From Escherichia coli (GTDB lineage: Bacteria > Pseudomonadota > Gammaproteobacteria > Enterobacterales > Enterobacteriaceae): a DNA stretch of 64,000 bases. Shown here one piece after another: positions 4,309 to 62,660 of this stretch. The notes under the pieces were generated by a model, which had not been told where the DNA came from, searched no databases, and saw only the letters and a program-made list of their open reading frames with translations. Position numbers and translations under genes: made by a program. The stretch's first letter is position 1; every line of letters begins with the position of its first letter. The stretch lies in NCBI RefSeq assembly GCF_024700885.2, contig NZ_CP117016.1; one strand, written 5' to 3'.

Positions 4309-7189
4309 TCTTTTCACTCATCAGGGGCATTGTTTGCTGCAACGCGCTGACGTTCTCCCACACTTTCCAGCCTTCAGGATGCACATATTCGGCTTTCCCG
4401 TTCTGGCTGCCGGAAATCTGCGACAGAATAGCCATGCCTTGCGGCTCGACCACCGCCTGATGGAAGAAATCAGCAAGTTTTTGCGGCGTCAGCAGTTTTA
4501 TCTGGGCCACGATTTTATCACGCGAATCGAAGCGCATATTGCCGCGATCGAAATCTTTACTTAACTTCGATGCTTCTTCGCCGAGCGTTTGCGGTGCCTG
4601 CAGCATCTGGGTTATTACCGCCTGCTGGATTTGCGCAAACTCTTCTGGCTTCATCGTCCGCAATTTTGCCTCTGCGGTTGGGAAAAACGCCTTGTAACGC
4701 TCCCACAAGAATGAAGGCTGTTTATCATTGCTTTGCAACAGGAAGCCCATGCCCCACTGACGCCCCACGCTCATTGGAAACGCAAACACGGCATAGCCCA
4801 ACTGTTCTTCGGTACGCAACTGATTGTAGAACCACGGCTGTACGATCTGCCCCAACAGAGAGCTATAGGCTGAGCTGGTGTATTCATCGTAGCCAGTCGG
4901 TACAAATACCGCTGCCAGTGCGGAGTCGGTACTGTTACCGGCTTTTTCAAAGATGACGGATTGTTTTTTATCGACCACGACATCTTTGTTACGACACCAC
5001 TCCGAACCATCAGCGCCCAACTGTTTTTGCACATCGCGTGCCAGCGTTGTTGCCTGGGCTTCGGTCATGTTGCCAATAACCATAAACTCTGGTCGAGCCC
5101 CTGATTTTAAGGCGTCGCGATAGGCCAGCACCTCTTTCAAAGTGATTGAAGGCAAAATTTTGCGCCGTTCATCTCGCGAGAAGTACGGCACTTGCGAGAG
5201 CATCTGCGCGGGCATAATCGCCTGCTCGAACGCTTTGCCCTTTTCTGCGGAATCCATCATCTGGTTATACCAGGACTTCGCCTGCTCAAGCTGATCTTCC
5301 GTAGCGGTATAGCTAAAGTAGCCCTCGAGCAATGCCTGGAACAGCTGCGGCAGGCGCTGGGTGTAACCATTGGCATTAACCATAAGGCCGTTGTTAGCGT
5401 TGGTGGAAAAACTTATGCCACCAACCGACGCCTGGTTGCTTAACTGATCAAGCGCCAGCCCTGCGAGATAATCATTGAGCGCAAACATCACCTGATTGCG
5501 GGCGCTATCCATGGCTTTCGGATTACGCAAAATCAGGCTGACATCAGCTTTGGGTTCGCTGGAAAAATAACGGCTTGGCGCATAGACCACACGCAGATTC
5601 GACTCATCAACAATAAGCTCTGGATGGTCATATTTCTTCTCTGACTTAATCAGCGAGAAATCGTCAGGAATATAGGGGTTAAGCTCTGGCAAAGAGAGCG
5701 CAATGTCGGCGGCTTTTTTCTGCCAGTCAGCGAAAGTTTGTGCGCTAATTTTATCTACCTGATACGGCGCATCGACAAAGTAAGCCGTTTTGTTGTGCGG
5801 CTCTTTCGGGCTGATATACCAGATACGCGCATTCTGCGGCGTCATCATCGCCAGGCGTTCTTTTACTGCTTTAGCGTCGTACCGATCGGCAATATTGACT
5901 GCATCCAGCGTATGCTCAACAGGAACGCGAATCATGGTATCTGCCAGCCATTCGACGTAATCCATATCACGGGTGATTGACGGATAACGGAAGTCGATAT
6001 CCAGCACATTCGCCAGTTCATCGAAGTATTGTTTATCGATCCCTTTTTCACGTAACAGATTGAGGTAGCTAAAAATGGCCGCCACAACCTGATCGCGATT
6101 CGCCAGACCTTTATCGGTTAAAGAAGCAGAGATCGCTAATACGCCGCTGTTGCCGTTGACGATAGGATCGGAGTTGGCGCTAATGCCCTCAACTAATCCC
6201 TGCTTTTGCAGCCAGTCAGAAAGTGTACCTGGGCTGCGATTACCAATCAGATAGGTAATCAATTCATCCGTTTTACTACGGAACTTCGCTGAGTTGTTCT
6301 CGATGCGAAACTCAACGCGCAGAACTTTACGCGGCAGCGCCGGGACGTAATGAATGATAATGCCCTTTTGCGCGTCGGTGACTACCGGCACGGTGATTTC
6401 CGGTTTTTTGCTCTCGTTGTTCGGCACGCGACCAAAGGTGTCCGCCGCCATTTTTGCCAACTCCGGCAGCGGTTTATTGCTGTAAATAACCGCCTTCATC
6501 AGATTGGCGGAATAGTACTTCTCGTGGAAATCTTTCAGCGCCTGCTGCACCGGATTTCCGGGTTTGTCGCTTAAAGTTTCGAGGTTACCACCAGAAAACT
6601 TTGAACCGGGGTGTGCCGGGTTAATGGTTTCTGCGCTGACCTGCGCCATGCGCATCCCGTCACGCGTACGCGCCATGGTTAATTCGGCATTCACTGCATT
6701 ACGTTCACGTTCGGCGTATTTCTTGTCGAGCAAGGGTTCTGCAATAGCGTCCGCCAGGCGGTCTACCGCACCGGGCAAGGCGTCGTTCTCAACTTCCAGA
6801 TAGAAAGCCGTGCGATACGGTGCCGTGCTGGCATTGTGACTGCCGCCGTGCATTTTGAGATATTCGGCCAGACTGTCAGCCTGCGGGTACTTTTTCGACC
6901 CCATCAGACTCATATGTTCAAGGTAATGTGCCAGCCCCTGGTACGCCTCGGGATCTTCCAGCGACCCAACGGGAACCACCAGCGCCGAGAGCGATTTAAC
7001 CGCCTGCGGATCAGAAACCAGCAAGACCACCATACCGTTATCCAGACGTATAGCCTGATACTGGCGGTTATCTTTATCACTTTTACGGATGGTTTCCTGA
7101 ATCGGCTGCCATCCCGTTTCTGCCTGACTTAAGGGTGCCCAAAGGGCAACAAACAACAATAATGCTTTGAACCAGGTGCTGCGGGGCAT
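4301..7189 (-). CDS. ptrA: Protease III (pitrilysin), M16 zinc metalloprotease
   Basis: 962-aa ORF with signal peptide and inverted zinc motif HYLEH; stop overlaps recB start. Confidence 0.95.
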   Translation of the reverse strand: MPRSTWFKALLLFVALWAPLSQAETGWQPIQETIRKSDKDNRQYQAIRLDNGMVVLLVSDPQAVKSLSALVVPVGSLEDPEAYQGLAHYLEHMSLMGSKKYPQADSLAEYLKMHGGSHNASTAPYRTAFYLEVENDALPGAVDRLADAIAEPLLDKKYAERERNAVNAELTMARTRDGMRMAQVSAETINPAHPGSKFSGGNLETLSDKPGNPVQQALKDFHEKYYSANLMKAVIYSNKPLPELAKMAADTFGRVPNNESKKPEITVPVVTDAQKGIIIHYVPALPRKVLRVEFRIENNSAKFRSKTDELITYLIGNRSPGTLSDWLQKQGLVEGISANSDPIVNGNSGVLAISASLTDKGLANRDQVVAAIFSYLNLLREKGIDKQYFDELANVLDIDFRYPSITRDMDYVEWLADTMIRVPVEHTLDAVNIADRYDAKAVKERLAMMTPQNARIWYISPKEPHNKTAYFVDAPYQVDKISAQTFADWQKKAADIALSLPELNPYIPDDFSLIKSEKKYDHPELIVDESNLRVVYAPSRYFSSEPKADVSLILRNPKAMDSARNQVMFALNDYLAGLALDQLSNQASVGGISFSTNANNGLMVNANGYTQRLPQLFQALLEGYFSYTATEDQLEQAKSWYNQMMDSAEKGKAFEQAIMPAQMLSQVPYFSRDERRKILPSITLKEVLAYRDALKSGARPEFMVIGNMTEAQATTLARDVQKQLGADGSEWCRNKDVVVDKKQSVIFEKAGNSTDSALAAVFVPTGYDEYTSSAYSSLLGQIVQPWFYNQLRTEEQLGYAVFAFPMSVGRQWGMGFLLQSNDKQPSFLWERYKAFFPTAEAKLRTMKPEEFAQIQQAVITQMLQAPQTLGEEASKLSKDFDRGNMRFDSRDKIVAQIKLLTPQKLADFFHQAVVEPQGMAILSQISGSQNGKAEYVHPEGWKVWENVSALQQTMPLMSEKNE

Positions 7190-36688: not shown

Positions 36689-36964
36689 GTGGCTTCTGTT
36701 TCTATCAGCTGTCCCTCCTGTTCAGCTACTGACGGGGTGGTGCGTAACGGCAAAAGCACCGCCGGACATCAGCGCTATCTCTGCTCTCACTGCCGTAAAA
36801 CATGGCAACTGCAGTTCACTTACACCGCTTCTCAACCCGGTACGCACCAGAAAATCATTGATATGGCCATGAATGGCGTTGGATGCCGGGCAACTGCCCG
36901 CATTATGGGCGTTGGCCTCAACACGATTTTACGTCACTTAAAAAACTCAGGCCGCAGTCGGTAA
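36689..36964 (+). CDS. insA: IS1 InsA (transposition inhibitor / N-terminal part of InsAB' transposase)
   Basis: 91-aa [43 protein letters not shown] (zinc-finger CxxC...CxxC). Confidence 0.9.
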
Positions 36965-37386
36965 CCTCGCGCATACAGCCGGGCAGTGACGTCATCGTCT
37001 GCGCGGAAATGGACGAACAGTGGGGCTATGTCGGGGCTAAATCGCGCCAGCGCTGGCTGTTTTACGCGTATGACAGTCTCCGGAAGACGGTTGTTGCGCA
37101 CGTATTCGGTGAACGCACTATGGCGACGCTGGGGCGTCTTATGAGCCTGCTGTCACCCTTTGACGTGGTGATATGGATGACGGATGGCTGGCCGCTGTAT
37201 GAATCCCGCCTGAAGGGAAAGCTGCACGTAATCAGCAAGCGATATACGCAGCGAATTGAGCGGCATAACCTGAATCTGAGGCAGCACCTGGCACGGCTGG
37301 GACGGAAGTCGCTGTCGTTCTCAAAATCGGTGGAGCTGCATGACAAAGTCATCGGGCATTATCTGAACATAAAACACTATCAATAA
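36883..37386 (+). CDS. insB: IS1 InsB frame (expressed as InsAB' transposase by -1 frameshift)
   Basis: ORF in the -1 frame relative to insA; slippery A6C motif at 36940-36946 inside the insA/insB overlap. Confidence 0.85.
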
Positions 37387-38543: not shown

Positions 38544-38887
38544 AATCTTTCCTCGCTTAAAAAACAAGACGCCATATCATAGCAGCCAGCCTCTGGATAC
38601 CCAATCTCTTGCTTCTCGAAAAACGCGGTAATAGAGAAAGAGGTTAATTTCATTTGGCAAAGGGAAGTATCATCAGCAAAATATTCGCTGCAGAGGTATC
38701 GAATTTCCTGACTTTTTTACCCTATTTCCCATCCTGATGCGTAATAATCCTGATTTATCACATTGATTTTATCGCCACTCATATTGATACGTATCACTGC
38801 CCCTATTCAGAGTCCTGTTTCGTATCATATCTGTGTTTTTTTAACGTCATCACACTTCCTTCCTCCCCTAACGCTTATCGTCGTTTC

Positions 38888-38902
38888 TGGCGTAAATCTT
38901 GC
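38888..38902 (+). promoter_or_regulatory. Candidate sigma54 (-24/-12) promoter for xdhABC
   Basis: TGGCGTA-AATC-TTGC matches TGGCAC-N5-TTGC with correct GG-N10-GC spacing, about 95 nt upstream of xdhA; TTATCA-CAT-TGAT and TGATA-CG-TATCA palindromes at 38751-38797. Confidence 0.45.
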
Positions 38903-38997
38903 CTGCTTAGACTAAATCTTTGCCATAAGAACCAAATGTTCAAATCGAGGGGATTTCTATGGAAGCGCGGGAAGCAACCGCTACGGGTGAATCTTGC

Positions 38998-42660: not shown

Positions 42661-44439
42661 TTATGTGTTTAACAACTCATATTTCTTAATCTTGCGATAG
42701 AGCGTAGCAATGCCGATGCCCAGTTCATCAGCAACTTGCTTCTTGCTGTTATGACGTGAAAGCGCCTCGCGGATCATTTGCTTTTCCATCTCCTCCAGCG
42801 CCGTGCCGCCCGCATCATCGAGTGCCAGGTGCGCCTCGTTGACCTCTGTTACATCACTTTGCTCCGTTGTGCCATTATTCAGCAGATTTGGCGGCAATAG
42901 CGTGCTGTCGATAACTTCACCTGAAGGAACCACGTTAACCAGATATTCCATCAAATTGCTTAACTCGCGCAGGTTTCCGGGCCAACGATGCTTACGCAAT
43001 ATTTCGACGACATCGGGAGCAATGCCCGGATAAACCGATCCCAGACGACGGGTATGCAGATGTAAAAAGTAATGCACCAGTAGTTCAATATCTTCCTGAC
43101 GTTCACGCAGCGGTGGCAGAGTTATCGGGATAACATTAAGTCGGTAGAAGAGATCTTCGCGGAATTTACCTTCGGCAATGAACTGGGCCAAATTCTGGTT
43201 AGTTGCAGAAATGATGCGAATGTCGACTTGTATTGGGCTACTGGCACCAATCGGCAGAATTTCACGCGCCTCAATAGCGCGCAGTAATTTAGCCTGCAAC
43301 ATTAATGGCATATCACCTATTTCATCGAGAAACAGCGTGCCCGTATTCGCCGCCTGAATCAACCCTGTTTTACCGTTGGCAGAAGCGCCAGTAAATGCGC
43401 CTTTAACATAACCGAACAGTTCGCTCTCCAGAAGCTGCTCCGGAATCGCGGCACAGTTGATAGCAATAAAGGGTTTATTCCGTCTTCCGCTCAACTTATG
43501 GATTGCACGGGCGACAACTTCTTTACCCGTGCCGCTTTCACCAACCACCATAACGCTGGATGGGCTGGGTGCAATACGGCTAATGAGTCGTTTTAATTGC
43601 CGCATAACACGGCACTCGCCAACCAATTGTTCAATATGCGGTTCATCAGGTGCATTTGCTACAGAAAAACTGGTATGCGATTGGTGAAACGCCATTAAAA
43701 ATAATTGTCGGCCCTGAATGTTATGCAATTGACCAATGATTAATTCACTTTTATCGTCCCACGAAACAATATGCTGCATATGTCCATGGGTAAAATTACT
43801 CTCAAATGTTAATGGTCTGAAACGGATAGGTTTCCCAATAATATTATTTTGTACAACACCAAGTGTTTTTAAGGCAGTCTGATTAACAAACTGAATCCGA
43901 TTATCGTCATCAACAACTAATACACCCTGATCCATATTATCGATCATGGTCGCGAATATTTTACTGATGTTATCTCCTGGTCCCTGATCCTCCAGAAGTT
44001 TCGAAACAAAAATGGTGGATATATGGCGAACGTAATCAGAAAATTCGCGTAAATTATCACTAATATGCTCTTGTTGCTCGTGGGTAACGGCAATCAAACT
44101 TATCACCCCAACACAACGATCCTGTAAAATGACAGGCGTACCCAGAAATGCTTTTTCGCGGCAATTTTCTTTACTATCGCAACCTTCGCAAAGGGGATCG
44201 AAGCGAGACTGTGTCACAACTTTTTCAGTTTTCGTTTCCAGGACGTGGCGGAGCAGGCGTGAGTTGCCGCTCAACTGGCGACCAAGAAACTTCCCATACG
44301 CGCCCGTTCCGGCGACGCGACACAAGTTTTCATCAACGATCTCAACCTCAAGCTGCAAAACGCTGGCAAGCATTCTGGCAAAACGCTGAATTGTCGGTTG
44401 AATTTGCATCAATACTGACTGCGTAGTAGCAAGCTCCAT
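42661..44439 (-). CDS. ygeV: Sigma54-dependent transcriptional activator (bacterial enhancer-binding protein)
   Basis: 592-aa ORF with AAA+ sigma54 interaction domain: Walker A GESGTGKE, GAFTGA motif (KGAFTGA), ESELFGY, and C-terminal HTH. Confidence 0.9.
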   Translation of the reverse strand: MELATTQSVLMQIQPTIQRFARMLASVLQLEVEIVDENLCRVAGTGAYGKFLGRQLSGNSRLLRHVLETKTEKVVTQSRFDPLCEGCDSKENCREKAFLGTPVILQDRCVGVISLIAVTHEQQEHISDNLREFSDYVRHISTIFVSKLLEDQGPGDNISKIFATMIDNMDQGVLVVDDDNRIQFVNQTALKTLGVVQNNIIGKPIRFRPLTFESNFTHGHMQHIVSWDDKSELIIGQLHNIQGRQLFLMAFHQSHTSFSVANAPDEPHIEQLVGECRVMRQLKRLISRIAPSPSSVMVVGESGTGKEVVARAIHKLSGRRNKPFIAINCAAIPEQLLESELFGYVKGAFTGASANGKTGLIQAANTGTLFLDEIGDMPLMLQAKLLRAIEAREILPIGASSPIQVDIRIISATNQNLAQFIAEGKFREDLFYRLNVIPITLPPLRERQEDIELLVHYFLHLHTRRLGSVYPGIAPDVVEILRKHRWPGNLRELSNLMEYLVNVVPSGEVIDSTLLPPNLLNNGTTEQSDVTEVNEAHLALDDAGGTALEEMEKQMIREALSRHNSKKQVADELGIGIATLYRKIKKYELLNT

Positions 44440-44808
44440 AGCTTTACCTTCCAGACTTACTTAAAAGTCGATCATTGAAGACGTTGATGGTTCACAGATC
44501 ATGATGATATTAACTCAGGCGAAATTGGCTTTGATAAAAACATAAGATTTTTATCACTTTCTAATGAAATTATGGAAGAGATATCACATTTCTATATCAA
44601 TATGAGAATTACGGCGGTGAGTTTATCAAACTGAAGAGAGAGCGCCTGTTCCTTTATCTTATTTCTGATACTTAGCAGCAAATAAATAACGCGATAAAAA
44701 AAGCCAAACGTTTTCGTATTTTACAAACAACCAGAAGCTGGCATCAATTTGTGATCAACCCCACACATTACCCGTCAAATTAGTCTTTTGCAGCCGCTTG
44801 GATAATTC

Positions 44809-44824
44809 TGGCATAGTTATTGTT
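44809..44824 (+). promoter_or_regulatory. Weak candidate sigma54 promoter upstream of ygeW
   Basis: TGGCATA-GTTA-TTGT: -24 element good, -12 is GT rather than GC; TGATAA/TTATCA-type repeats further upstream (44531-44633). Confidence 0.3.
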
Positions 44825-44915
44825 AGTCCCAGGTATAGCTGTGAAAAGACCAATCACTTTTGGCAAGTCACAGTGAAATAAACCTCTTTGCCTGTCATTC
44901 CACTACCGGGACTTT

Positions 44916-46106
44916 ATGATGAAAACTGTTAATGAGCTGATTAAGGATATCAATTCGCTGACCTCTCACCTTCACGAGAAAGATTTTTTGTTAACGTGGG
45001 AACAGACGCCAGATGAACTGAAACAAGTACTGGACGTTGCCGCAGCATTAAAAGCACTGCGTGCTGAAAACATCTCAACCAAAGTCTTTAATAGTGGATT
45101 AGGTATTTCCGTATTCCGCGACAACTCCACCCGTACCCGTTTCTCTTATGCTTCCGCGCTTAACCTGCTCGGCCTTGCACAGCAAGATCTCGACGAAGGC
45201 AAATCACAAATCGCTCACGGCGAAACCGTGCGTGAAACCGCCAATATGATCTCCTTCTGCGCCGATGCCATCGGTATTCGTGACGATATGTATCTGGGCG
45301 CAGGCAACGCCTATATGCGTGAAGTTGGCGCTGCACTTGATGACGGTTACAAGCAGGGTGTGCTGCCGCAACGTCCGGCTTTAGTGAACCTGCAATGCGA
45401 TATTGACCACCCGACTCAGTCAATGGCTGACCTGGCATGGTTACGTGAACACTTTGGTTCACTGGAAAACCTGAAAGGTAAAAAAATCGCCATGACCTGG
45501 GCCTACTCCCCAAGCTATGGCAAACCGCTCTCTGTACCACAAGGCATCATCGGTCTGATGACTCGCTTCGGTATGGATGTCACCCTGGCCCATCCGGAAG
45601 GCTACGACCTGATCCCGGATGTCGTTGAAGTCGCTAAAAACAATGCTAAAGCCTCCGGCGGTAGCTTCCGTCAGGTCACCAGCATGGAAGAAGCCTTCAA
45701 AGACGCAGACATCGTTTATCCGAAGTCATGGGCACCTTACAAAGTGATGGAAGAGCGTACTGAATTGCTGCGTGCGAACGATCACGAAGGCTTAAAAGCA
45801 CTGGAAAAACAGTGTCTGGCACAGAACGCGCAACACAAAGACTGGCATTGTACTGAAGAGATGATGGAACTGACCCGTGATGGCGAAGCCCTGTACATGC
45901 ACTGCCTGCCAGCTGATATCAGCGGCGTATCCTGCAAAGAAGGTGAAGTGACTGAAGGCGTATTCGAAAAATACCGTATCGCGACCTACAAAGAAGCCAG
46001 CTGGAAGCCTTATATCATCGCCGCGATGATCCTGTCCCGCAAATACGCCAAACCAGGTGCACTGCTCGAGCAACTGCTGAAAGAAGCGCAAGAACGCGTG
46101 AAATAA
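44916..46106 (+). CDS. ygeW: Carbamoyltransferase-family protein (ATCase/OTCase fold)
   Basis: 396-aa ORF with carbamoyl-phosphate binding STRTR motif (DNSTRTRFSYASA). Confidence 0.9.
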   Translation: MMKTVNELIKDINSLTSHLHEKDFLLTWEQTPDELKQVLDVAAALKALRAENISTKVFNSGLGISVFRDNSTRTRFSYASALNLLGLAQQDLDEGKSQIAHGETVRETANMISFCADAIGIRDDMYLGAGNAYMREVGAALDDGYKQGVLPQRPALVNLQCDIDHPTQSMADLAWLREHFGSLENLKGKKIAMTWAYSPSYGKPLSVPQGIIGLMTRFGMDVTLAHPEGYDLIPDVVEVAKNNAKASGGSFRQVTSMEEAFKDADIVYPKSWAPYKVMEERTELLRANDHEGLKALEKQCLAQNAQHKDWHCTEEMMELTRDGEALYMHCLPADISGVSCKEGEVTEGVFEKYRIATYKEASWKPYIIAAMILSRKYAKPGALLEQLLKEAQERVK

Positions 46107-46163: not shown

Positions 46164-47360
46164 ATGTCCGTTTTCTCATTGAAGATTGATATCGCCGATA
46201 ACAAATTTTTCAACGGCGAAACATCACCGCTCTTTTCGCAAAGCCAGGCCAAACTGGCGCGCCAGTTCCACCAGAAAATTGCTGGTTATCGCCCAACACC
46301 GCTTTGTGCGCTGGACGATCTCGCAAACCTTTTTGGTGTGAAGAAAATTCTCGTCAAAGACGAATCAAAACGATTCGGTCTGAACGCCTTCAAAATGCTC
46401 GGCGGTGCGTACGCCATCGCTCAATTATTGTGTGAAAAATATCATCTTGATATCGAAACGCTGTCATTTGAGCATCTGAAAAATGCCATCGGCGAAAAAA
46501 TGACCTTCGCGACCACCACCGACGGCAACCACGGGCGCGGTGTGGCATGGGCAGCACAGCAACTCGGACAGAATGCGGTGATTTACATGCCGAAAGGTTC
46601 TGCTCAGGAACGCGTTGACGCCATTCTGAACCTCGGTGCCGAGTGCATCGTCACGGATATGAACTATGACGATACCGTTCGCCTGACCATGCAACACGCG
46701 CAGCAGCACGGCTGGGAAGTGGTGCAAGATACCGCCTGGGAAGGTTACACCAAAATCCCAACCTGGATCATGCAGGGCTATGCAACACTGGCAGATGAAG
46801 CCGTCGAGCAAATGCGTGAAATGGGCGTAACCCCGACGCACGTTCTGCTGCAAGCTGGTGTCGGTGCAATGGCCGGTGGTGTGCTGGGTTATCTGGTCGA
46901 CGTCTATAGCCCGCAAAATCTGCACAGCATTATTGTTGAACCTGACAAAGCTGACTGTATTTATCGCTCCGGCGTCAAAGGCGACATCGTCAACGTTGGC
47001 GGTGATATGGCCACCATCATGGCGGGCCTGGCCTGCGGCGAACCTAACCCGCTGGGCTGGGAAATCCTACGTAACTGCGCCACCCAATTCATCTCCTGCC
47101 AGGACAGTGTTGCCGCATTAGGTATGCGTGTGCTGGGTAATCCGTACGGCAATGACCCGCGCATCATCTCCGGTGAATCCGGCGCTGTCGGTTTGGGCGT
47201 TCTCGCAGCGGTTCATTATCACCCGCAACGTCAAAGCCTGATGGAAAAACTGGCGCTGAACAAAGATGCCGTAGTGCTGGTTATCAGCACTGAAGGCGAC
47301 ACAGACGTGAAGCACTACCGCGAAGTTGTCTGGGAAGGCAAACACGCTGTAGCACCTTAA
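46164..47360 (+). CDS. ygeX: PLP-dependent 2,3-diaminopropionate ammonia-lyase
   Basis: 398-aa fold-type II PLP enzyme ORF. Confidence 0.9.
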   Translation: MSVFSLKIDIADNKFFNGETSPLFSQSQAKLARQFHQKIAGYRPTPLCALDDLANLFGVKKILVKDESKRFGLNAFKMLGGAYAIAQLLCEKYHLDIETLSFEHLKNAIGEKMTFATTTDGNHGRGVAWAAQQLGQNAVIYMPKGSAQERVDAILNLGAECIVTDMNYDDTVRLTMQHAQQHGWEVVQDTAWEGYTKIPTWIMQGYATLADEAVEQMREMGVTPTHVLLQAGVGAMAGGVLGYLVDVYSPQNLHSIIVEPDKADCIYRSGVKGDIVNVGGDMATIMAGLACGEPNPLGWEILRNCATQFISCQDSVAALGMRVLGNPYGNDPRIISGESGAVGLGVLAAVHYHPQRQSLMEKLALNKDAVVLVISTEGDTDVKHYREVVWEGKHAVAP

Positions 47361-52760: not shown

Positions 52761-53531
52761 CTAATTCACAAATCTGCGCGCGATTGCAGGATGTTCTTGT
52801 ATATCGCCCAGCCAGATTGCCTCTACGTCGTGTTGTTGCAGCGGTTGAAGGAGCTCGCTTTGTGCAATCGCATTCTCACATTGAGAAAAACGGTTAATGA
52901 ACCAGACTCGCCGACAACCTTGCGGTACGTTTTTAAATGCGCCCTGAGGGTGGCGAACCAGCGCAACGAGATCGCTCAGTTGCAAGGTTGCATCAGGTGT
53001 TAACCCGGTAATATCAGCAAACTGCGACCAGCGATGGACATTTTCTGTGCTCACTTTCGCGCCCAAAATATGTCCTCCCATCACAGCAATCACGCAGCAA
53101 CTGCTTTTGGGTATGCAAGGTTCGTGCTCATCAGGCGCTTTTAACGTCATTCCACGCGAGCCATCTGCCTCAATGAGAATTACGTCACACTCTGGTCGTT
53201 GCACCAGTGCATCAATCGCTTCTGGCGTAAATCCCTGCACTTTTCCCTGGTTCGCTTTCCAGCTGTGAAAACAAAATGAAATGGGGGATGTAAGAGACGC
53301 ATGAGGAAGCATGGCGGGATCACGACAGAAAACCACGGGCCAGTGAGACGTTGGCATAAACATATGTGTCGTCGTAGTGATTAACACACGCCTGCCGCTA
53401 GCCTGGAGCAGTTCTGCCAGCCAAAAAAGCAAGCTGGTTTTCCCCCCAGCCCCAACAACAGAAATCACAGTGGGACGTTTCTGCGCGCCTAAATCAATGA
53501 ATAATGCCGATGGGTCAACTATACTTTTCAC
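52761..53531 (-). CDS. yqeC: P-loop NTPase-like accessory protein (selenium-dependent molybdenum hydroxylase marker)
   Basis: 256-aa ORF with Walker A VVGAGGKTS. Confidence 0.85.
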   Translation of the reverse strand: MKSIVDPSALFIDLGAQKRPTVISVVGAGGKTSLLFWLAELLQASGRRVLITTTTHMFMPTSHWPVVFCRDPAMLPHASLTSPISFCFHSWKANQGKVQGFTPEAIDALVQRPECDVILIEADGSRGMTLKAPDEHEPCIPKSSCCVIAVMGGHILGAKVSTENVHRWSQFADITGLTPDATLQLSDLVALVRHPQGAFKNVPQGCRRVWFINRFSQCENAIAQSELLQPLQQHDVEAIWLGDIQEHPAIARRFVN

Positions 53532-54212: not shown

Positions 54213-54436
54213 AAAATGTAGTTAAACGATTGCGTTCAAATATTTAATCCCTCCAGCACTCTTTATCATAATGATAAGGAATCACTGATTTTGAGAAAAG
54301 AGAAAAAGTGATAAATGGGCTGGCAATAATAATTTTCAGGAGTGATTTTAATTCTCATTTGGCACCTGTGAGTTCATTCACAAAAAGCTCCTAAGTTTCG
54401 AGCCGCCTCACATTTTTTTATATTTCCCGCCAAACC

Positions 54437-54451
54437 TGGCAAGAGTGGTGC
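54437..54451 (+). promoter_or_regulatory. Candidate sigma54 promoter upstream of ygfK
   Basis: TGGCAAG-AGTG-GTGC with GG-N10-GC spacing, about 85 nt upstream of the ygfK ATG; perfect palindrome TTATCA-TAA-TGATAA at 54263-54277. Confidence 0.3.
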
Positions 54452-54533
54452 GATTGTTGCTCTATCCCCCTAAACCACCGGATTTCTCAACACCGGTCAC
54501 TCAATGATATCTGTATAAGCTAAGGAGAGGGTT

Positions 54534-59793: not shown

Positions 59794-62660
59794 TCATCCA
59801 CTTTACTTTAAATGGCGCGCCTCAGGAGCTAACCGTTAATCCAGGCGAAAACGTGCAAAAGCTGTTGTTTAACATGGGAATGCACTCTGTACGCAACAGC
59901 GATGATGGATTCGGGTTTGCCGGTTCTGACGCAATTATCTGTAACGGTAATATCGTTAACGCGTCCTTGCTTATCGCCGCACAGTTAGAGAAGGCAGATA
60001 TTCGTACCGCAGAGTCTCTGGGCAAATGGAACGAGTTAAGTCTGGTTCAACAGGCAATGGTTGATGTTGGCGTGGTGCAGTCTGGTTATAACGATCCAGC
60101 TGCGGCTCTGATTATCACCGATCTTCTCGATCGCATTGCCACACCGACCCGCGAAGAGATCGACGACGCGCTTTCTGGTTTGTTCAGCCGCGATGCAGGC
60201 TGGCAACAATACTATCAGGTCATTGAACTGGCGGTTGCACGTAAAAATAATCCGCAGGCCACCATTGATATCGCTCCAACTTTCCGCGATGACCTTGAAG
60301 TCATTGGTAAGCATTATCCTAAAACTGATGCCGCGAAAATGGTGCAGGCGAAACCCTGCTATGTTGAAGACCGCGTAACGGCTGACGCCTGCGTCATTAA
60401 AATGTTACGTAGCCCACACGCTCACGCACTGATTACTCATCTGGATATCAGCAAAGCTGAAGCCTTACCGGGCGTTGTTCACGTTATTACTCACCTGAAT
60501 TGCCCGGATATCTACTATACCCCGGGCGGTCAGAGCGCACCGGAACCGTCACCGCTTGACCGCCGTATGTTCGGCAAGAAAATGCGTCACGTCGGCGATC
60601 GCGTTGCTGCGGTCGTCGCTGAAAGTGAAGAAATTGCGCTCGAAGCACTGAAGCTCATCGACGTTGAATATGAAGTGCTTAAACCTGTAATGTCGATCGA
60701 CGAAGCAATGGCGGAAGATGCGCCTGTCGTGCACGATGAACCGGTGGTGTATGTTGCTGGTGCGCCAGATACTCTGGAAGACGATAACAGCCATGCAGCC
60801 CAGCGCGGCGAACATATGATCATCAACTTCCCGATCGGTTCTCGCCCCCGTAAAAATATCGCCGCCAGTATTCATGGTCATATTGGCGATATGGACAAAG
60901 GCTTTGCCGATGCCGATGTGATCATTGAGCGAACCTATAACTCAACGCAGGCACAGCAGTGCCCGACTGAAACACATATCTGCTTTACCCGTATGGACGG
61001 CGATCGTCTGGTGATCCACGCCTCCACCCAGGTACCATGGCACTTACGCCGCCAGGTCGCGCGCCTCGTGGGCATGAAACAGCATAAAGTTCATGTCATT
61101 AAAGAGCGAGTTGGCGGCGGTTTTGGTTCCAAACAAGACATCCTGCTGGAAGAAGTGTGCGCCTGGGCAACCTGCGTGACCGGACGTCCGGTACTGTTCC
61201 GCTACACCCGTGAAGAAGAGTTTATTGCTAACACCTCTCGCCACGTCGCGAAAGTCACCGTCAAACTGGGCGCGAAAAAAGATGGTCGCCTGACGGCAGT
61301 GAAGATGGATTTCCGCGCCAACACGGGCCCTTACGGCAACCACTCACTCACCGTACCGTGTAACGGACCGGCGCTGTCGCTGCCGTTATATCCGTGTGAT
61401 AACGTCGATTTCCAGGTCACCACCTACTACAGCAACATTTGCCCAAATGGTGCTTATCAGGGTTATGGCGCGCCGAAAGGTAACTTCGCTATCACCATGG
61501 CATTAGCGGAACTGGCTGAACAGTTACAGATCGACCAGCTGGAAATTATCGAACGTAACCGTGTACACGAAGGGCAAGAGCTGAAAATTCTCGGTGCAAT
61601 CGGTGAAGGTAAAGCGCCGACCTCCGTTCCTTCCGCCGCCAGCTGCGCACTGGAAGAGATCCTGCGTCAGGGTCGCGAGATGATCCACTGGTCGTCACCG
61701 AAACCGCAAAATGGTGACTGGCACATCGGTCGCGGCGTCGCCATTATCATGCAGAAATCGGGTATCCCAGATATCGATCAGGCTAACTGCATGATCAAAC
61801 TGGAATCGGACGGCACCTTTATCGTTCATTCTGGCGGTGCGGATATTGGTACTGGTTTGGATACTGTGGTGACGAAACTGGCAGCAGAAGTGCTGCACTG
61901 CCCACCGCAGGACGTGCATGTTATCTCCGGTGATACCGATCATGCGTTGTTTGATAAAGGCGCATATGCCTCGTCCGGTACTTGCTTCTCGGGTAACGCG
62001 GCGCGTTTGGCAGCAGAAAATCTGCGGGAGAAAATTCTGTTCCACGGTGCACAAATGTTGGGTGAGCCAGTGGCAGATGTCCAACTAGCAACGCCGGGCG
62101 TCGTGCGCGGCAAGAAAGGCGAAGTTAGTTTCGGGGATATTGCCCATAAAGGCGAAACCGGCACCGGCTTTGGTTCACTGGTGGGAACTGGCAGTTATAT
62201 CACGCCTGATTTCGCCTTCCCGTATGGCGCAAACTTCGCTGAAGTTGCCGTCAACGCGCGTACGGGTGAAATCCGCCTGGATAAATTCTACGCCTTGCTG
62301 GACTGCGGTACACCGGTCAACCCGGAATTAGCATTGGGACAAATCTACGGTGCTACCCTGCGAGCTATCGGCCACAGTATGAGCGAAGAGATCATTTATG
62401 ACGCCGAAGGTCACCCGTTAACGCGTGATTTACGCAGTTACGGTGCACCGAAAATTGGTGACATTCCGCGTGATTTCCGCGCAGTGCTGGTGCCGAGCGA
62501 CGATAAAGTCGGCCCGTTCGGGGCGAAATCGATCTCGGAAATCGGTGTAAATGGCGCAGCTCCGGCGATTGCTACCGCAATTCACGATGCCTGCGGCATC
62601 TGGTTACGCGAATGGCATTTCACACCGGAGAAAATACTCACCGCGCTGGAAAAAATATAA
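59790..62660 (+). CDS. xdhD: Molybdopterin-binding hydroxylase with degenerate N-terminal Fe-S-like domain (putative hypoxanthine/purine oxidase)
   Basis: 956-aa ORF; C-terminal about 780 aa is aldehyde oxidase/XDH Mo-binding type; N-terminal about 165 aa aligns to XdhC but carries a single cysteine. Confidence 0.9.
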   Translation: MIIHFTLNGAPQELTVNPGENVQKLLFNMGMHSVRNSDDGFGFAGSDAIICNGNIVNASLLIAAQLEKADIRTAESLGKWNELSLVQQAMVDVGVVQSGYNDPAAALIITDLLDRIATPTREEIDDALSGLFSRDAGWQQYYQVIELAVARKNNPQATIDIAPTFRDDLEVIGKHYPKTDAAKMVQAKPCYVEDRVTADACVIKMLRSPHAHALITHLDISKAEALPGVVHVITHLNCPDIYYTPGGQSAPEPSPLDRRMFGKKMRHVGDRVAAVVAESEEIALEALKLIDVEYEVLKPVMSIDEAMAEDAPVVHDEPVVYVAGAPDTLEDDNSHAAQRGEHMIINFPIGSRPRKNIAASIHGHIGDMDKGFADADVIIERTYNSTQAQQCPTETHICFTRMDGDRLVIHASTQVPWHLRRQVARLVGMKQHKVHVIKERVGGGFGSKQDILLEEVCAWATCVTGRPVLFRYTREEEFIANTSRHVAKVTVKLGAKKDGRLTAVKMDFRANTGPYGNHSLTVPCNGPALSLPLYPCDNVDFQVTTYYSNICPNGAYQGYGAPKGNFAITMALAELAEQLQIDQLEIIERNRVHEGQELKILGAIGEGKAPTSVPSAASCALEEILRQGREMIHWSSPKPQNGDWHIGRGVAIIMQKSGIPDIDQANCMIKLESDGTFIVHSGGADIGTGLDTVVTKLAAEVLHCPPQDVHVISGDTDHALFDKGAYASSGTCFSGNAARLAAENLREKILFHGAQMLGEPVADVQLATPGVVRGKKGEVSFGDIAHKGETGTGFGSLVGTGSYITPDFAFPYGANFAEVAVNARTGEIRLDKFYALLDCGTPVNPELALGQIYGATLRAIGHSMSEEIIYDAEGHPLTRDLRSYGAPKIGDIPRDFRAVLVPSDDKVGPFGAKSISEIGVNGAAPAIATAIHDACGIWLREWHFTPEKILTALEKI

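Follow-up and report, generated by a model that had tools for sequence, protein, structure and literature searches.

The window analysed here is a stretch of 64,000 nucleotides of the Escherichia coli contig NZ_CP117016.1 (assembly GCF_024700885.2), and our subject is the spacer between two of its divergent genes, ygeV and ygeW. This spacer holds a sigma-54 promoter element facing ygeW and, upstream of it, conserved boxes built on the dyad TTATCA-N3-TGATAA, which, as judged from the comparisons below, are very probably docking sites of the activator YgeV. The RefSeq gene order is xdhABC, ygeV (minus strand), ygeW-dpaL-ygeY-hyuA-arcC, yqeB, yqeC, mocA, ygfK-ssnA-ygfM-xdhD and xanQ. According to the RefSeq annotation and the list of open reading frames the intergenic region occupies 44440-44915, in agreement with the 476 bp given in the initial annotation of this DNA. 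The two genes that it separates are:

42661-44439, minus strand: ygeV, sigma-54 enhancer-binding protein and presumed binder of the boxes (RefSeq and Pfam).
44916-46106, plus strand: ygeW, first gene of the operon ygeW-dpaL-ygeY-hyuA-arcC (open reading frame list and RefSeq).

Over the 801 bp around the feature the sequence agrees completely (100%) with E. coli SMS-3-5 (NC_010498.1), and most of this 801-bp query is present in 5,174 of 5,426 complete E. coli genomes. Orthologous loci were collected by scanning one genome per species with the N-terminal 271 residues of YgeV, which yielded 41 ygeV loci (63-96% identical over these residues); at every locus that reaches far enough, i.e. in 39 genomes, ygeW lies divergent from ygeV. 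All conservation counts for the spacer refer to the alignment of these 39 orthologous ygeV-ygeW spacers from Enterobacteriaceae. Conserved blocks are found at 44504-12 (ATGATATTA), 44531-35 (TTGAT), 44568-78, 44583-44609 and 44622-33, and further conservation is seen in a CRP-like dyad (44750-65), in the sigma-54 element and in the stretch preceding the start codon. A stretch of about 110 bp (44640-44745) is unconserved.

44808-44824, plus strand: ygeW sigma-54 (-24/-12) promoter CTGGCATAGTTATTGTT, identified by position weight matrix (PWM), by alignment with chromatin immunoprecipitation sequencing (ChIP-seq) data, by genomic systematic evolution of ligands by exponential enrichment (gSELEX) and by conservation in 39 of 39 spacers.

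In CTGGCATAGTTATTGTT the GG at 44810-11 and the GT at 44822-23 are separated by exactly 10 bp, as the sigma-54 class requires, and the transcription start of ygeW is predicted near 44835. A sigma-54 PWM was built from the 49 ChIP-seq motifs of Bonocora et al. (2015, Table 1) with the ygeW entry excluded from training. It assigns 15.5 bits to 44808-44824 (training sites: median 15.7, minimum 8.2) and ranks this site first of 127,968 window positions, with the xdhA promoter in second and the ygfK promoter in fourth place. The ygeW sigma-54 promoter has already been published by others. The K-12 ChIP-seq site OS30, CTGGCACACTTATTGTT, is a plus-strand site centred 80 bp upstream of ygeW (Bonocora et al. 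2015, PMC4591121), and an RpoN gSELEX peak (53-55%) was reported within the ygeV/ygeW spacer (Shimada et al. 2021, PMC8743547). When K-12 and the window are aligned, OS30 falls exactly on 44808-24, and the two 17-mers correspond column for column, with the same position, orientation and -12 TTGT. The literature thus establishes for the aligned K-12 site that it is occupied by the sigma-54 holoenzyme; neither paper defines activator sites or shows transcription from the site. Among the 39 spacers, TGGCA and the -12 TTGT are each invariant.

The initial annotation had described this element as weak and tentative on account of a GT instead of a GC at -12. The GT was read correctly, but the low grading is at odds with the first rank in the PWM scan, with OS30 and the gSELEX peak, with the presence of the GT in 39 of 39 genomes and with the same GT at -12 in the confirmed pspA and pspG promoters (PMC4591121). 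The quoted string TGGCATAGTTATTGT is present at 44809-44823, its end having been placed one base too far, at 44824. The assertion that the spacer contains no other sigma-54-like element holds, because the other TGGCAT string, CTGGCATCAATTTGTGA at 44738, scores just 1.6 bits. We rejected this second string as a sigma-54 element, since one base is missing from its spacing; part of it coincides with the CRP-like site.

For the activator sites, dyads were enumerated exhaustively (1024 pentamers at 13 spacings, 0-12) in four E. coli regions upstream of sigma-54 promoters, a procedure that avoids choosing a motif by eye. Only two dyads matched at least three regions, and the best, TATCA-N3-TGATA, has five matches, is present in all four regions and occurs 11 times in 79 kb (Poisson 6e-8). 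The same dyad, TTATCA-N3-TGATAA, is found in another phylum: Nie et al. (2019, PMC6615313) reconstructed the sigma-54 regulons of Clostridiales computationally, and the sites they predicted for the activator DioR (e.g. ATTTATCATAATGATAAGG and ATTTCCCAATATGAGAATT, supplement) carry it, next to a variant TTCTCA-N3-TGAGAA. A PWM built solely from 17 published clostridial DioR sites of that supplement was run over 77.7 kb of E. coli DNA. The best match lies in the ygfT-uacT spacer, followed by 44592-44610 in the ygeV-ygeW spacer, by a box upstream of ygfK, by a site inside yqeC and by a box upstream of xdhA; four of the top five thus fall in the four E. coli regulatory regions. In the ygeV-ygeW spacer itself we distinguish the following elements, none of which has an assigned strand:

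44592-44610: box D2, strong, putative YgeV/DioR-type box CTATATCAATATGAGAATT, i.e. TATCA-ATA-TGAGA, centre 44601.
44621-44639: box E, moderate, putative, GTTTATCAAACTGAAGAGA, centre 44630, with the left half TTATCA and the TG of the right half.
44494-44512: box A, weak, ACAGATCATGATGATATTA, i.e. GATCA-TGA-TGATA, only the right half conserved.
44530-44556: inverted repeat TTGATAAAAA-N7-TTTTTATCA, half-sites B and B' facing outward, not a dyad box.
44568-44591: conserved block AATTATGGAAGAGATATCACATTT (AATTATGGAAG...ATCACATTT), with a perfect CRP half-site at its right end (TCACATTT) and a weak left half, TGGAA.

Within the spacer, only 44592-610 and 44621-39 stand out in the DioR scan. Box D2 scores 18.0 bits, beats all 500 AT-matched shuffles and is conserved in both halves (TATCA in 38 of 39 genomes, TGA(G/T)A in all 39); its block 44593-44609 is a perfect TTATCA-N3-TGATAA in Klebsiella, Kluyvera, Buttiauxella and others, where E. 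coli has ATATCA-ATA-TGAGAA. Box E reaches 7.6 bits (top 0.04% of window positions), its TTATCA is present in 39/39 genomes, and the TG of its right half is kept in the block 44622-36. Box A is an inverted copy of D2 with one mismatch to TATCANNNTGATA and 5.6 bits; its right half reads TGATA in 26 and NGATA in 36 of the 39 genomes, and another possibility is that it belongs to the core promoter of ygeV. The columns of the block 44568-44591 are at least 85-95% conserved (ATCAC 34/39, ATGGAA 21/39), and the sequence of this block would suit either a further CRP-like site or a portion of the ygeV promoter.

The repeats that the initial annotation had pointed out are all where it placed them (TTGATAAAAA at 44531-40, TTTTTATCA at 44548-56, GATATCACATTTCTATATCAATATG at 44580-44604 and GTTTATCAAACTG at 44621-33) and they are real, but the repeated unit is the dyad TTATCA-N3-TGATAA and not a set of loose hexamers. 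The second and third strings hold one box each, the second ending at 44604 in the middle of a box that extends over 44592-44610, and the conserved element 44504-12 (ATGATATTA) had been overlooked. The first string (44531-56) does form a perfect inverted repeat (TGATAAAAA/TTTTTATCA, 9 nt, arms 7 nt apart), yet it consists of two partly conserved half-sites only: TGATAA is found in 16/39 and TTATCA in 17/39 genomes, the latter mainly in a clade of Escherichia, Citrobacter, Atlantibacter and Trabulsiella. We rejected this inverted repeat as a functional unit in favour of the N3 dyad, given its DioR score of at most 2.2 bits and arms conserved in just 16-17 of 39 genomes.

Repeats of this kind might be functionless chance products of AT-rich DNA. 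The intergenic region is 66% A+T, and the number of weak matches is not significant on an AT-matched background; because of this, the half-sites are argued for by their conservation. However, the strong box exceeds every AT-matched shuffle, D2 and E, unlike the flanking spacer, are conserved in the 39 genomes, and the dyad was recovered independently at other promoters and in another phylum. Chance is thus an extremely improbable explanation for the repeats as a whole; for D2 and E it is effectively refuted, and for the clade-specific half-site 44548-56 it is possible. Simple counts point the same way. The pentamers TATCA/TGATA occur in six copies within 44505-44624, the densest 120 bp of the 64-kb window (mean 0.35), with the xdhA upstream region second and the ygfK upstream region joint third; TATCANNNTGATA with up to two mismatches is found 46 times in the window against 21.8 expected (0/100 shuffles as high), four of the 46 lying in the ygeV-ygeW intergenic region.

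The dyad is also found upstream of the sigma-54 promoters of xdhA, ygfK and ygfT/uacT and is conserved at orthologous loci. Boxes with at most one mismatch number 47 in 38 orthologous loci (762 kb), and about 43 of them lie upstream of ygeV/ygeW, ygfK, xdhA or yqeC. In the window these boxes, again with no assigned strand, are:

38753-38792: xdhA boxes TATCA-CAT-TGATT (38756-68) and ACTCA-TAT-TGATA (38777-89), conserved in 17 genomes.
54261-54279: ygfK box, a perfect TTATCA-TAA-TGATAA (core 54264-76), DioR score 17.3 bits, conserved in about 24 genomes.

The resemblance to the motifs upstream of xdhA, which had been noted earlier, is therefore genuine: the same dyad is found there twice. The two xdhA boxes have a spacing of 21 bp and precede the xdhA sigma-54 promoter (38887-38903) by 106-127 bp; the DioR score at xdhA is 14.0 bits (fifth in 77.7 kb). 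A palindrome upstream of xdhA, TGATACGTATCA, was rejected as a YgeV site, its left part alone being conserved; the conserved unit is ACTCA-TAT-TGATA. The string TTGATACGTATCAC at 38784-38797 in the same upstream region matches the FNR consensus TTGAT-N4-ATCAA in 9 of 10 positions, and its right half is unconserved in other genera. The ygfK box lies 177 bp upstream of the ygfK sigma-54 promoter (54445-54461). Outside the window, the ygfT-uacT spacer contains a 15-mer, ATATCAATATGAGAA, identical to window positions 44593-44607 (6960-6974 of our locus L043, i.e. NC_010498.1 3109959-3109973). It is flanked by the ygfT sigma-54 site (reverse complement, 6780-6796) and by a sigma-54-like CTGGCACTCCACGAGCA facing uacT (7084-7100), so that this single box may, from its placement, serve both promoters.

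A few further matches lie within genes. The fourth-best DioR match, CATTCTCACATTGAGAAAA (52871-52889), falls within the 3'-terminal part of yqeC, some 160 bp ahead of yqeB, and no sigma-54 promoter for yqeB was seen downstream of it. A perfect TATCATCTTGATA occurs inside dpaL (46440-46452), and three box-like matches are found in 115 bp inside xdhD (61389-61502).

The correspondence with the clostridial system extends beyond the motif. The published DioR regulon comprises dpaL, ygeW-ygfK-ssnA-ygeY, yqeB/C, xdhABC and a purine permease, its function being given as 'Unknown' at that time, and dioR itself is listed in it (PMC6615313); the gene content of the window matches this list. The DioR site of Clostridium botulinum ygeW, ATTTATCATAATGATAAGG, is almost the same as CTTTATCATAATGATAAGG, the ygfK box of E. 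coli, and the layout is the same in both systems, with boxes about 100-300 bp upstream of -24/-12 promoters. YgeV consists of a GAF-like N-terminal domain, a PAS domain, an AAA+ domain and a Fis-type helix-turn-helix (Pfam Sigma54_activat, PAS_8, HTH_8). A homologue with 33% identity over residues 8-400 and the same recognition helix ELGIGIATLYRKI is encoded in a Firmicutes metagenome-assembled genome, upstream of an M20-peptidase/PALP operon, and the spacer between them contains three boxes (one perfect) and a -24/-12 promoter; this DNA is G+C-rich and has only four such boxes in 21 kb. On a Clostridium-like contig (29% G+C), the gene of a full-length homologue (35-44% identical, residues 8-584, helix LGIGIATLYRK) is flanked by homologues of yqeC/yqeB and dpaL-permease-xdhAB, and there the boxes cluster on both sides of the gene, together with two perfect sigma-54 promoters. 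Overall, the Firmicutes homologues are 33-44% identical to YgeV and align with it collinearly over residues 8-584, and their genes have homologues of dpaL, ygeY, xdh and yqeB/C as neighbours. The recognition helix is thus common to E. coli YgeV and the Clostridium-like homologues. The locus of a more distant GAF-PAS enhancer-binding paralogue, taken as a negative control, contains no boxes. When the N-terminus of YgeV was used in word-index searches for proteins, the hits were for the most part fragments, and none was a named DioR protein. Taken together, these similarities give supportive, indirect evidence that YgeV may be orthologous to DioR. In the literature we searched, no published YgeV binding motif was found. 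The N-terminal sensor domain of YgeV has, at residues 84-93, a C-x2-C-x5-C motif (CEGCDSKENC), which is kept in the Firmicutes homologue (CRDCPKHAGC) and hints at a metal or redox-sensitive site.

It could be objected that the TTATCA/TGATAA elements are bound by another, global regulator (Fur, FNR, IHF, ArcA or similar) and not by YgeV. The hexamers TGATAA/TTATCA also occur in the Fur box, TTGAT and ATCAA are FNR half-sites, and the 9/10 match to FNR upstream of xdhA would fit as well. However, scans of the intergenic region for Fur and FNR gave no convincing match (best Fur 12/19, FNR 7/10), the IHF consensus is absent from it even when one mismatch is allowed, and the FNR-like site of xdhA is unconserved in its right half. 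Moreover, the dyad travels with YgeV-family genes through the Enterobacteriaceae and two Firmicutes loci of very different G+C content, and its best matches in 77.7 kb occur only at sigma-54 promoters belonging to a single regulon. A global regulator as the binder of these boxes is therefore, in our opinion, very unlikely.

The spacing of boxes and promoter is conserved in phase. Between the centre of D2 and the -24 GG there are 209-213 bp in 36 of the 39 genomes (209 in the window), 199 bp in two and 189 bp in one, i.e. the variants differ by steps of one helical turn. The centre of box E lies 180 bp upstream of the GG, and the spacing of D2 and E is 29 bp in 38/39 genomes. In contrast, the distance from the ygeV ATG to D2 varies between 129 and 187 bp across the same genomes, and the constant phase relative to the GG thus indicates that the constraint is with the ygeW promoter. 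That helical phasing is kept over an unconserved spacer is as a looping enhancer predicts.

This bears on the most serious alternative, namely that the boxes are chiefly operators through which ygeV regulates its own, presumably sigma-70, promoter, and that activation of ygeW is secondary or takes place via other sites. With 55-200 bp to the start codon of ygeV, the boxes are nearer to that gene than to ygeW, and by eye 44504-12 and 44530-37 resemble -10/-35 hexamers on the ygeV strand. Furthermore, dioR belongs to its own predicted regulon in Clostridia, and the PWM scan shows no sigma-54 motif facing ygeV. On the other hand, it is the distance to the ygeW promoter and not that to the ygeV ATG which is held in phase, the same boxes occur at xdhA, ygfK and ygfT/uacT, where there is no regulator gene, and a sigma-70 promoter scan of the intergenic region finds two sites against 2.0 expected by chance, neither of them conserved. 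We regard autoregulation as the chief role of the boxes as unlikely; the two roles are compatible with each other, and the boxes probably also autoregulate ygeV.

44750-44765, no assigned strand: CRP-like site TGTGATCAACCCCACA, centre 44757.5, 52.5 bp upstream of the GG and at about -77 from the predicted start.

Between boxes and promoter lies this CRP-like site, with one mismatch to TGTGA-N6-TCACA (6 such matches in 64 kb against 1.9 expected). It has (C/T)GTGA in 37/39 genomes, and the distance from its centre to the GG is 52.5-54.5 bp in 37 genomes and 42.5 bp in the genome with the 189-bp D2 spacing. A native Crp-binding site has been mentioned in the ygeV-ygeW spacer, along with glucose repression of the pathway (PMC12507026); since no coordinates are given there, its identity with 44750-65 is inferred. 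Similar sites are found at the other promoters. A perfect CRP consensus, TGTGAGTTCATTCACA, is located at 54367-54382 between the ygfK box and its sigma-54 promoter (centre to GG 72.5 bp); upstream of xdhA a weak TTTTA-N6-TCACA (38839-38854), in a conserved block, lies between box and promoter (42.5 bp); and a CRP-like dyad (L043 7035-7050) lies between box and promoter of uacT (43.5 bp). Compared with the 52.5 bp of ygeW, these distances place the CRP-like sites in roughly equal helical phase.

Since a CRP-like site is conserved 52.5 bp ahead of the -24 element, ygeW could also be driven by a CRP-dependent sigma-70 promoter, with the sigma-54 site being one of the many non-productive ones in E. 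coli. By eye, GATAAT at 44801-06 is a potential -10 element in this species, the peak in the ChIP-seq data is weak, and Bonocora et al. stress that sigma-54 binding is no proof of promoter function (PMC4591121). Nevertheless, all 39 genomes have TGGCA-N7-TTGT, but conservation of GATAAT ends with Escherichia and close Citrobacter; a promoter of this kind did not emerge from the sigma-70 scan; the sigma-54 site has the right orientation and is centred 80 bp ahead of ygeW (Table 1 of Bonocora et al.); and the homologous clostridial operons likewise have sigma-54 promoters. This explanation, too, we consider quite improbable.

The ygeV-ygeW region is therefore best read, with good though not complete confidence, as a classical enhancer-dependent sigma-54 control region with YgeV on the boxes, and the core of the initial annotation, a ygeW sigma-54 promoter with TGATAA/TTATCA activator sites related to those of xdhA, is supported by the sequence comparisons and by the literature. 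According to this scheme, sigma-54 RNA polymerase would wait in a closed complex on the -24/-12 promoter 44808-24, and YgeV dimers would bind, via their Fis-type helix-turn-helix, to TTATCA-N3-TGATAA boxes 180-300 bp upstream (44592-610, 44621-39 and the weaker half-sites within 44494-556). Upon a signal, presumably urate or a related metabolite, YgeV would assemble into an active AAA+ oligomer and contact the polymerase through DNA looping. The loop would probably be set by CRP at 44750-65, because an IHF site is absent from the spacer. YgeV would then open the promoter with ATP and switch on ygeW-dpaL-ygeY-hyuA-arcC. The same boxes would serve the sigma-54 promoters of xdhABC, ygfK-ssnA-ygfM-xdhD and ygfT/uacT, all of which would belong to a single YgeV regulon for the anaerobic breakdown of purines and uric acid. 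This is consistent with the YgeV iModulon, in which the regulon is co-expressed, with the lowered expression of ygfT in a ygeV mutant and with the requirement of ygeV for uric-acid consumption.

Several observations weigh against this interpretation. On the side of the promoter, the window sequence CTGGCATAGTTATTGTT differs from K-12 CTGGCACACTTATTGTT by two substitutions, both outside the GG/GT dinucleotides, the ChIP-seq signal at ygeW is only three-fold above threshold (PMC4591121), and our literature search found neither a transcription start site nor rpoN reporter data for ygeW. On the side of the boxes, there is only one strong box (D2) in the region, and the count of weaker matches is not above that of AT-matched shuffles (P = 0.06-0.25). 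With 180-300 bp, the ygeW boxes are farther from their promoter than those of xdhA (106-127 bp), and they are nearer to ygeV than to ygeW and may for that reason chiefly autoregulate ygeV. As regards the binding protein, the literature search found no YgeV footprint, electrophoretic mobility shift assay or ChIP and no experiment that places YgeV on the boxes. The clostridial DioR sites have themselves been predicted by computation (PMC6615313), and the related clostridial activator BldR has a similar core, TGTATCA-N3-TGATACA (Nie et al. 2019), so that the core alone is insufficient to identify the binding protein.

The E. coli box is an enterobacterial member of the predicted DioR motif, and the type of mechanism is ordinary, not new. 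The two systems belong to different phyla, and the identity between their activators is only about 35-44%; in E. coli the boxes show greater degeneracy (TGAGA for TGATA), the -12 element has GT and not GC, and a CRP-like site lies between box and promoter. The regulon content (dpaL, ygeW, ygfK, ssnA, ygeY, xdhABC, yqeB/C and a purine permease) and the dyad are the same. YgeV and Enterobacteriaceae go unmentioned in Nie et al. (2019, PMC6615313), and the motif assignments are computational on both sides. We slightly favour the view that the whole circuit, consisting of a YgeV/DioR-family activator, its boxes and sigma-54 promoters, is common to Clostridia and Enterobacteriaceae and moved with the cluster for reductive purine and uric-acid degradation, and that the enterobacterial copy gained a helically phased CRP site in place of IHF and a fixed -12 GT. 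If this is true, the YgeV operator of E. coli is defined, and its regulon is directly predictable and can be re-engineered.

Among classical sigma-54 promoters with bacterial enhancer-binding proteins are those of NtrC at glnAp2 and PspF at pspA, and the divergent prpR-prpBCDE region is assisted by CRP. The ygeV-ygeW region resembles such systems in its divergent regulator gene, in several dyads upstream of a -24/-12 promoter and in a site for a DNA-bending protein between them, and it shares the GT at -12 with pspA and pspG. It differs in that an IHF site is missing and CRP apparently takes that position, in that the boxes are farther upstream (180-300 bp), and in that the sensor of YgeV is a GAF-like plus PAS module instead of a receiver domain. 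For sigma-54 biology, the region is of interest as a conserved -12 GT promoter with a CRP and not an IHF site between enhancer and promoter.

The cluster from ygeW to ygfT accounts for anaerobic uric-acid and purine degradation by gut bacteria and is tied to host urate balance and gout (10.1101/2022.07.24.501321, PMC12507026). In these studies the regulation of the pathway is called poorly understood, and probiotic strains are already being engineered by swapping precisely the ygeV-ygeW spacer. The definition of the box, of its phase relative to the promoter and of the CRP site provides concrete targets for footprinting, reporter mutagenesis and promoter design, and the YgeV regulon becomes predictable in other Enterobacteriaceae.

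44838-44874, plus strand: predicted hairpin GCUGUGA...UCACAGU in the ygeW leader, about 3 nt from the predicted 5' end.

This stem is present at the same position in the minimum free energy folds of 36 of 37 orthologous leaders, although its arms vary (CGGUGAUG/CAUUACCG; GCUGUC/GACAGC) and its loops span about 8-40 nt. An Rfam scan of the leader gave no match, and RNAalifold detected no consensus structure in the MAFFT-aligned leaders, whose loops could not be brought into register, so that each leader was folded singly. On the basis of these folds the hairpin may be a stabilising 5' stem-loop. In Buttiauxella agrestis the ygeW leader is, owing to an insertion, about 115 nt longer than in other genera, and its enhancer-promoter distance is still 210 bp. 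Elsewhere in the window, an element of the IS1A family (36689-37386) adjoins yqeH, upstream of a tRNA-Gly gene and actS.

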